In this document: positions 13,380-63,337 of the stretch, piece by piece
Layout of the letters: each line of letters begins with the position of its first letter
How positions within the stretch are numbered: the first letter of the stretch is position 1
From: Escherichia coli
GTDB taxonomy: Bacteria > Pseudomonadota > Gammaproteobacteria > Enterobacterales > Enterobacteriaceae
Length of the DNA: 64,000 nucleotides
NCBI RefSeq assembly: GCF_044324785.1
Contig: NZ_CP172127.1
Direction: 5' to 3' (one strand)
Program-made: the position numbers and the translations under genes
Notes under the pieces: generated by a model
The model's input: only the letters and a program-made list of their open reading frames with translations
What the model was told of the DNA's origin: nothing
Database searches by the model: none

Positions 13380-14087
<708 letters not shown>

Positions 14088-14094
14088 TACTTTC

Positions 14095-14114
14095 AGCCCG
14101 CGTTGTCGCGGGCT
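14095..14114 (+). terminator. hairpin after leuE (terminator candidate)
   Basis: AGCCCGCG-TTGT-CGCGGGCT 8-bp GC stem 8 nt after the leuE stop; weak U-tract. Confidence 0.45.
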
Positions 14115-14169
14115 TCCCATCTGTAATCCTCCCTGATTCTTCTCTGATATGGTGCTAAAAAGTAACCAA

Positions 14170-14194
14170 TAAATGGTATTTAAAATGCAAATTA
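14170..14194. promoter_or_regulatory. NsrR-like operator upstream of yeaR-yoaG
   Basis: AT-rich imperfect inverted repeat AAATGGTATTT-A-AAATGCAAATT resembling the 11-1-11 NsrR motif, about 70 bp before yeaR. Confidence 0.5.
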
Positions 14195-14259
14195 TCAGGC
14201 GTACCCTGAAACGGCTGGAATAAACCATTTTCAGCGCATTCACCGAAGGAGGGAAAAGG

Positions 14260-14619
14260 ATGCTGCAAATCCCACAGAATTATATTCATACGCGCTCAAC
14301 GCCTTTCTGGAATAAACAAACTGCGCCTGCCGGAATATTCGAACGTCATCTTGATAAAGGAACGCGCCCGGGAGTTTACCCACGCCTTTCCGTTATGCAT
14401 GGGGCGGTCAAATATCTCGGCTACCCTGATGAACACAGTGCAGAGCCTGATCAAGTGATCCTTATCGAAGCGGGGCAGTTTGCGGTGTTCCCTCCAGAAA
14501 AGTGGCACAACATTGAAGCCATGACTGACGATACTTATTTCAACATTGACTTCTTCGTTGCCCCTGAAGTCCTGATGGAAGGTGCGCAACAACGGAAAGT
14601 CATTCATAACGGGAAATGA
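14260..14619 (+). CDS. yeaR: DUF1971 protein YeaR
   Basis: 119-aa ORF; 3-nt gap to yoaG suggests an operon. Confidence 0.85.
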   Translation: MLQIPQNYIHTRSTPFWNKQTAPAGIFERHLDKGTRPGVYPRLSVMHGAVKYLGYPDEHSAEPDQVILIEAGQFAVFPPEKWHNIEAMTDDTYFNIDFFVAPEVLMEGAQQRKVIHNGK

Positions 14620-14622
14620 ATC

Positions 14623-14805
14623 ATGGGCAAAGCAACGTATACCGTGACCGTCACCAATAACAGCAATGGCGTTTCTGTCGATTATGAAACAGAGACGCCG
14701 ATGACTTTGCTGGTGCCAGAAGTGGCGGCTGAAGTGATAAAAGATCTGGTGAATACCGTGCGTTCTTATGACACGGAAAACGAACATGATGTTTGTGGTT
14801 GGTAA
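14623..14805 (+). CDS. yoaG: DUF1869 small protein YoaG
   Basis: 60-aa ORF MGKATYTVTVTNNSNG immediately after yeaR. Confidence 0.8.
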   Translation: MGKATYTVTVTNNSNGVSVDYETETPMTLLVPEVAAEVIKDLVNTVRSYDTENEHDVCGW

Positions 14806-14952
14806 TTATCTCTGATCGTTGATGGCGCAATTTCTGCGCCATCGCAAAAAAATCCTCCGTGATGCTCGTCACAAATTTTGCCCTCCCGATGTTGTGCTAT
14901 GCTTTTTATCAGCGACTAACCCGCTAATGCAAAACAGATAAGTGAGGAAACA

Positions 14953-15201
14953 ATGGGCATTCTGTCATGGATTATTTTTGGGCTTATTGCCGGTATTCTG
15001 GCGAAGTGGATCATGCCAGGTAAAGATGGTGGTGGATTCTTTATGACTATCCTGCTGGGGATAGTCGGTGCCGTAGTCGGCGGATGGATCAGCACGCTGT
15101 TTGGCTTTGGTAAAGTCGATGGCTTCAATTTTGGCAGCTTCGTGGTTGCCGTTATTGGCGCGATTGTCGTGCTGTTTATCTACAGAAAGATTAAAAGTTA
15201 A
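14953..15201 (+). CDS. yeaQ: GlsB/YeaQ/YmgE-family small membrane protein
   Basis: 82-aa glycine-rich two-TM ORF MGILSWIIFGLIAGILAKW. Confidence 0.85.
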   Translation: MGILSWIIFGLIAGILAKWIMPGKDGGGFFMTILLGIVGAVVGGWISTLFGFGKVDGFNFGSFVVAVIGAIVVLFIYRKIKS

Positions 15202-15214
15202 CGTTTAAATTGCA

Positions 15215-15249
15215 CAAAGGCTGCACACAGGCAGCCTTTGCTATTTTCT
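15215..15249. terminator. terminator hairpin after yeaQ
   Basis: CAAAGGCTGC-ACACAG-GCAGCCTTTG 10-bp perfect stem followed by CTATTTTCT; lies between the yeaQ stop and the yoaJ stop. Confidence 0.7.
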
Positions 15250-15259
15250 AGATGTGACG

Positions 15260-15334
15260 TTACCACCATCCCAGCTCAGTGCCGAGTACGACAATAATCG
15301 CCACACCCATCATAATAATCGTTGTTTTTTTCAT
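15260..15334 (-). CDS. yoaJ: small membrane protein YoaJ (24 aa)
   Basis: Direct reverse-complement reading gives MKKTTIIMMGVAIIVVLGTELGWW then stop; below the ORF-track size cutoff. Confidence 0.75.
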   Translation of the reverse strand: MKKTTIIMMGVAIIVVLGTELGWW

Positions 15335-63139: not shown

Positions 63140-63337
63140 GTAATTTCCAGTAAATTTCGTCAATGATCACAATTCCAGAATTATATTTTACTTCTGCATA
63201 ACATTACGTTTTTTATTCTTTTTATTCACCCACATCGCAAACGTATTCACTTTATATGCACTTTAAATGCATATGGTTTGGTTATAACTCCTTGATTTCC
63301 AGTTAGCCTCCGCCGTTTATGCACTTTTATCACTGGC

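Follow-up and report, generated by a model that had tools for sequence, protein, structure and literature searches.

A very probable NsrR operator shares promoter DNA with the NarL activator site upstream of yeaR-yoaG in Escherichia coli

RESULTS

The yeaR-yoaG locus

We analyzed a 64,000-nucleotide stretch of Escherichia coli DNA (hereafter the window), in which the genes around the region of interest follow the order dmlR-leuE-yeaR-yoaG-yeaQ. Of 5426 complete E. coli genomes, 5421 contain a match to the 1.9 kb around the operator; identity reaches 99.8% in the closest of them, whose RefSeq annotation reads leuE, yeaR, yoaG, yeaQ and yoaJ. Over its full length the window is collinear with strain VCSW7 from yoaB to chbC, and the nsrR gene lies outside the window. 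The features discussed here are collected in Table 1.

TABLE 1 Features of the yeaR-yoaG locus, with positions counted from the first base of the window
Feature	Coordinates	Strand	Basis
NarL 7-2-7 activator site, TAACCAA-TA-AATGGTA (TAACCAATAAATGGTA)	14163..14178	+	Identical to the yeaR site in PMC10853779
Very probable NsrR operator, 11-1-11 inverted repeat AAATGGTATTT-A-AAATGCAAATT	14171..14193	.	Identity with Table 4 of PMC5320621, weight matrix, orthologues
Predicted -35 hexamer, TTTAAA, 4/6 to consensus	14179..14184	+	Counted from the published NarL center at -43.5
Predicted -10 hexamer, TACCCT, 3/6 to consensus	14202..14207	+	Counted geometry; 17-bp spacer
Predicted transcription start (G), 46-nt leader	14214	+	Derived from the NarL center at -43.5
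yeaR, 119 aa, DUF1971 (TehB N-terminal-like)	14260..14619	+	ORF, RefSeq annotation, Pfam PF09313 (E 1.7e-22)
yoaG, 60 aa, DUF1869	14623..14805	+	ORF, Pfam PF08956 (E 4.7e-33), PDB 1nei (E 7.8e-37)
10-bp stem-loop past yoaG, possible operon end	14820..14844	+	Strand folding, -17.2 kcal/mol, z -1.9

The yeaR stop codon (14617-14619) and the yoaG ATG are separated by 3 nt (TGAatcATG), so that a gene for a DUF1971 protein is followed closely, on the same strand, by a gene for a DUF1869 protein, and the two are co-induced in published experiments. Of 26 orthologous loci, 25 have a gap of 2 to 5 nt, which supports the two-gene operon with a 3-nt gap proposed in a first-pass annotation of this DNA. 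The description of both products as proteins of unknown function also still holds. YeaR matches PDB entry 3bb6, named "uncharacterized protein yeaR" (E = 9e-81), and neither this structure nor 1nei has an assigned function. YoaG is identical to its K-12 counterpart; a single amino acid of the operon differs, residue 56 of YeaR (window position 14425), which is Pro here and Ala in K-12 MG1655.

The stem-loop past yoaG is followed by A7, lacks a T-run and was not called by a terminator scan of the region; it is a possible operon end of uncertain terminator status. On the other side of the operon, 8 nt past the leuE stop codon, a perfect 8-bp GC-rich hairpin (AGCCCGCG TTGT CGCGGGCT, 14095-14114) is likely the leuE terminator, despite its poor T-run. 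Most Citrobacter and Salmonella orthologues have a GC-rich hairpin of different sequence at the same place after leuE.

The 3' end of yoaG is also a point at which genomes diverge, the match to the window breaking at 14769 in approximately 1150 of the 5421 E. coli genomes. In strain L725 (locus L032, 13431-15070) an IS200/IS605-family element containing a tnpA pseudogene plus an intact InsQ/TnpB gene on the yoaG strand lies between yoaG and yeaQ. This insertion, which the window does not carry, gives YoaG a slightly longer C terminus (62 aa).

An inverted repeat upstream of yeaR matches NsrR sites

The first-pass annotation had placed an NsrR-like operator, an AT-rich imperfect 11-1-11 inverted repeat, about 70 bp before yeaR at positions 14170-14194 (TAAATGGTATTTAAAATGCAAATTA). 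The repeat is indeed present, with A or T at 19 of its 23 positions (83% AT) and complementarity between the arms at 8 of 11, but the proposed span includes one surplus base at each end, the 11-1-11 unit itself running from 14171 to 14193. This 23-mer, AAATGGTATTTAAAATGCAAATT, occurs only once in the window. The estimate of its distance was fair, as the yeaR ATG lies 66 nt past the end of the repeat and 78 nt past its center.

Arm symmetry by itself was no better than chance: the window contains 105 repeats of the 11-1-11 type with at least 8 of 11 complementary positions, compared with 83 +/- 10 in Markov-1 simulations. In addition, a generic inverted-repeat search with a 6-nt seed did not report the 11-1-11 repeat, and returned only the leuE-distal hairpin. 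Because the imperfect repeat was missed by the repeat finder, symmetry was not a useful criterion, and a matrix test was used instead.

We derived a symmetrized NsrR weight matrix, training it on the 16 distinct sites that Mehta et al. 2015 (PMC5320621, Table 4) list as ChIP-seq positive and leaving aside yeaR and all ChIP-negative sites. With this matrix the repeat scored 20.86 bits, ranking first among the ~64,000 positions of the window and falling between the lowest and the highest training site (12.8 and 31.0 bits). The runner-up in the window reached 11.1 bits, and the top score across 40 Markov-1 simulated windows was 18.7. The exact tail probability of the score is ~5e-8 per position, corresponding to ~0.003 expected occurrences per 64 kb. 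The resemblance of 14171-14193 to NsrR sites is beyond chance. No second NsrR site was found in the 64-kb window, where no other position reaches the lowest training-site score.

The sequence at 14171-14193 is, letter for letter, the yeaR NsrR site listed in Table 4 of PMC5320621, a predicted site with a PatSer ln P of -17.05, above the cut-off of the authors. A chance imperfect palindrome without function would account for the commonplace symmetry of the arms and for the silence of the repeat finder; it would account neither for the first rank and tail probability of the matrix score, nor for the assignment of the site to NsrR in print, nor for the conservation of the repeat across four genera within an otherwise divergent intergenic region (see below). 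This phylogenetic footprint effectively refutes such an explanation already, and we attribute to it almost no probability.

A further palindrome, at 63253-63275 inside chbC (TATATGCACTTTAAATGCATATG), has 9 of 11 complementary positions and an NsrR-like core, ATGCAnTTTAAATGCAT. It scored 10.1 bits on the NsrR matrix, below every training site, and is probably coincidental.

The repeat overlaps the NarL site and the predicted -35 hexamer

Two promoters can be fully activated by NarL alone; that of yeaR is one of them and has a single 7-2-7 site (PMC10853779, PMC7419079). This site is centered at -43.5, and the complex of NarL with RNA polymerase has been solved on the yeaR promoter by cryo-EM at 3.2 Å; phospho-NarL recruits the polymerase at yeaR through the alpha C-terminal domain (PMC10853779). 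NarL is the dominant positive control of yeaR. It was absent from the first-pass annotation, which was incomplete in that it missed the overlapping NarL site and Fis.

The positions of the -35 and -10 hexamers and of the transcription start were derived by counting from the NarL center at -43.5. The transcript in the cryo-EM complex begins with G, and the -35 element has been termed "intrinsically weak" (PMC10853779). Relative to the predicted start, the NsrR site extends from -43 to -21, with its center at -32. It thereby covers the predicted -35 hexamer, which is placed at the center of the repeat, and its left arm has 8 bp in common with the NarL site (right heptamer). Because of this overlap, repression and activation share DNA.

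A scan for sigma-70 consensus promoters between 13900 and 15000 found no promoter, as would be expected of a weak one that depends on an activator, with hexamers matching the consensus at only four and three of six positions; the result is not counter-evidence. A terminator-like match on the minus strand (14247-14230) was rejected as within chance, two such matches being found for 0.9 +/- 0.9 expected. A known riboswitch or small RNA was ruled out as an alternative, as Rfam returned no family in 13900-15300 even at E <= 1.

Published evidence for regulation by NsrR and nitric oxide

The yeaR site, NsrR as its regulator and the response of the operon to nitric oxide (NO) and nitrate are already known. 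In PMC5320621, yeaR is described as "known to be regulated by NsrR," with reference to Filenko 2007, Pullan 2007 and Lin 2007. In anaerobic cultures treated with nitrate as a source of NO, yeaR and yoaG were upregulated 160-fold and 168-fold, respectively, placing them among the top genes; ytfE and hcp were also among the most upregulated (PMC5320621). The published regulation and these expression changes support the NO-responsive control put forward in the first-pass annotation, while its NsrR-like operator is borne out by the identity with Table 4, the independent matrix and the phylogenetic footprint. As a NarL site is present as well as an NsrR site, the operon responds both to nitrate/nitrite, through NarL, and to NO, through NsrR.

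Other reports touch on the operon from different sides. In Salmonella, yoaG serves as a marker of the NsrR regulon, and the yeaR promoter is already in use as a nitrate/inflammation biosensor part. A yeaR-yoaG mutant of strain CFT073 kept the novel NO-scavenging activity that was tested (PMC5320621). An additional enterobacterial NsrR target given as "tehB homolog" by Rodionov 2005 may or may not be yeaR, and yeaR is unmentioned in Gilberthorpe 2007, a paper on NsrR.

NsrR ChIP-seq in CFT073 yielded no peak at yeaR despite an identical site, in aerobic L broth cultures at the mid-exponential stage of growth; the authors regarded the missing peak as a false negative (PMC5320621). The wording of the same paper suggests that the K-12 ChIP-chip targets did not include yeaR either.

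The NsrR-type site is conserved across four genera

We scanned the yeaR locus in one genome per species, which gave 26 loci from Escherichia, Citrobacter, Salmonella (arizonae and diarizonae) and Silvania. In all 26, the best NsrR-matrix match of the whole 3.3-kb locus was found at the orthologous place, with its center 73 to 84 nt before the ATG and scores of 11.4 to 24.2 bits. The right arm is degraded in the two Salmonella subspecies, whose sites scored 11.4 and 15.9 bits. At the species level, 5416 of 5426 E. coli genomes contain a 76-nt promoter core, with at least 99% identity in 4512. Over 14144-14226 the window does not differ from K-12 MG1655 at any base, the four single-nucleotide polymorphisms of the leuE-yeaR spacer relative to that strain all lying elsewhere.

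Two loci recovered in the survey were unusual. Silvania hatchlandensis (L027) has two tandem yeaR-like ORFs (1501-1845 and ~1858-2205) ahead of yoaG, and its best NsrR-type site, AAGTCGCATTTTAAATGCATTTT, scored 23.2 bits and is located upstream of the first of them. A 234-nt contig with a coverage of 0.8, assigned to Alkalicoccobacillus porphyridii (L028), encodes a YeaR fragment of 98% identity and almost certainly represents contamination of a Bacillales assembly by E. coli.

Seventeen upstream regions were then aligned, and identity was computed between the window and the 13 non-Escherichia sequences. The block 14163-14207 is 0.8 to 0.9 identical, versus ~0.35 for the remaining spacer and leader. 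In the non-Escherichia orthologues the NarL 7-2-7 site is conserved at 0.86, and the -10 region, TAMCCT, is kept at 0.83. Part of the conservation of the repeat must stem from the overlapping NarL site and -35 hexamer.

The position-wise pattern of conservation fits the 11-1-11 layout of NsrR sites. The center base (14182) varies, and positions 14183-14187 are nearly invariant or invariant; within the promoter spacer, the stretch 14185-14193 includes a conserved ATG (14185-14187) and ends with a TT (14192-14193) that is invariant in the aligned orthologues. Across the 23 positions, the information content of the matrix correlated with conservation (rho 0.53, p 0.009, the p value being indicative only, as the sequences are related). 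At the nine positions free of constraint from NarL or the -35 hexamer, the correlation was suggestive only (rho 0.62, p 0.08, indicative for the same reason).

In three Citrobacter loci the NarL 7-2-7 site has been replaced (GCCCCTTTTGGTGTA), those of C. sedlakii (L007), a Citrobacter metagenome-assembled genome (L011) and one C. amalonaticus strain (L024). All three keep an NsrR-type site of 21 to 22 bits (L007, 1409-1431; L011, 1409-1431; L024, 1408-1430), showing that the NsrR-like pattern is maintained independently of NarL. Judging from these sequences, the lineage may be under NO-only control.

These observations bear on the possibility that the block is a NarL-dependent promoter only, its resemblance to NsrR sites arising from AT-rich sequence and the induction by NO being indirect. 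The NarL site and activation by NarL have been demonstrated directly on this promoter (PMC10853779), the left arm and center of the repeat coincide with the right NarL heptamer and the -35 hexamer, and the CFT073 ChIP-seq peak is missing. AT-richness is nevertheless a poor match for a site score expected by chance so rarely in the window, and neither sigma-70 nor NarL places a sequence demand on the invariant TT or the conserved ATG of the spacer. With, in addition, the persistence of the NsrR-type site in the Citrobacter loci devoid of a NarL site and the statement in the literature that NsrR regulates yeaR (PMC5320621), we consider a promoter controlled by NarL only to be very unlikely.

DISCUSSION

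Our analyses indicate that the repeat at 14171-14193 is, with high confidence, an NsrR operator located in the sigma-70 promoter of the E. coli yeaR-yoaG operon. The best-supported reading is one of dual control, with repression by NsrR and activation by NarL. That the two sites overlap is seen directly from their coordinates, and the occlusion and competition outlined below are what this geometry would predict.

NsrR is an Rrf2-family iron-sulfur sensor of nitric oxide, and the reaction of NO with its Fe-S cluster destroys DNA binding. Without NO, holo-NsrR positioned over the -35 hexamer would block sigma region 4 by steric occlusion, and it would also compete with phospho-NarL at the promoter-proximal heptamer, such that occupancy by NsrR would keep yeaR-yoaG off or low. 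In the presence of NO, nitrosylation of the cluster would cause NsrR to leave the operator. Nitrate or nitrite would lead NarX and NarQ to phosphorylate NarL, which would then bind at -43.5 and recruit RNA polymerase via the alpha C-terminal domain. Because repressor and activator share promoter DNA, full expression would need both the loss of NsrR and the gain of NarL.

A third protein may act on the same DNA. Fis is abundant in rich aerobic medium during fast growth, and its footprint is said to overlap the NarL site centered at -43.5. According to the title of Squire et al. 2009, Fis-dependent repression competes with activation by NarL at the yeaR promoter. One could therefore propose that the AT-rich repeat is mainly a Fis site from which Fis represses by displacing NarL, with no role for NsrR, a proposal with which that title agrees, as does the fact that the NsrR ChIP was made in rich medium, where Fis is abundant. 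Binding by Fis and binding by NsrR are not, however, exclusive explanations, and both the match to the matrix and the distribution of conserved and free positions fit the 11-1-11 layout of NsrR specifically, so that a Fis site without NsrR function appears extremely improbable.

A more tentative extension of the dual-control reading, which we regard as doubtful though conceivable, is that the 31 bp from 14163 to 14193 are common to NarL, NsrR and Fis with mutually exclusive occupancy, and that C. sedlakii and C. amalonaticus have been rewired to NO-only control. If Fis occupies the promoter during rich aerobic growth, NsrR would be absent from it under those conditions, which would explain the negative ChIP-seq result, and NsrR would matter at yeaR only when Fis is low. 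If the loss of NarL control holds, the C. sedlakii/C. amalonaticus lineage would represent a small natural case of regulatory rewiring.

This check shows that the first-pass annotation could recognize a genuine operator from sequence alone. To that annotation it adds the overlapping NarL site, and an NsrR-type pattern kept in four genera, including loci from which the NarL site is missing.

The operators of other Rrf2 regulators, such as IscR or Streptomyces NsrR at hmpA, likewise involve a dimeric winged-helix repressor and an AT-rich inverted repeat overlapping promoter elements, and these repressors, too, are released by ligand or cluster chemistry. Their sequence motif differs, and it is the NsrR-specific matrix, together with the literature, that assigns the yeaR site to NsrR.

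As for activation, the other promoter that depends on NarL only, independently of Fnr, is that of ogt, which needs two tandem 7-2-7 sites where yeaR needs one (PMC10853779, PMC7419079). The cited literature on NarL-activated promoters describes no NsrR site at ogt.

The closest relatives of the yeaR site are the NsrR operators of ytfE, hmp, hcp-hcr and ygbA (consensus AAGATGCATTT-N-AAATGCATCTT), which have the same 23-bp 11-1-11 layout. Like them, the yeaR site lies in a promoter and has a score within the ChIP-positive range, although it is a weaker palindrome than the ytfE operator (20.9 compared with 31 bits). Unlike the ytfE-type operators, it had no ChIP-seq peak in CFT073, and it overlaps the site of an activator, NarL.
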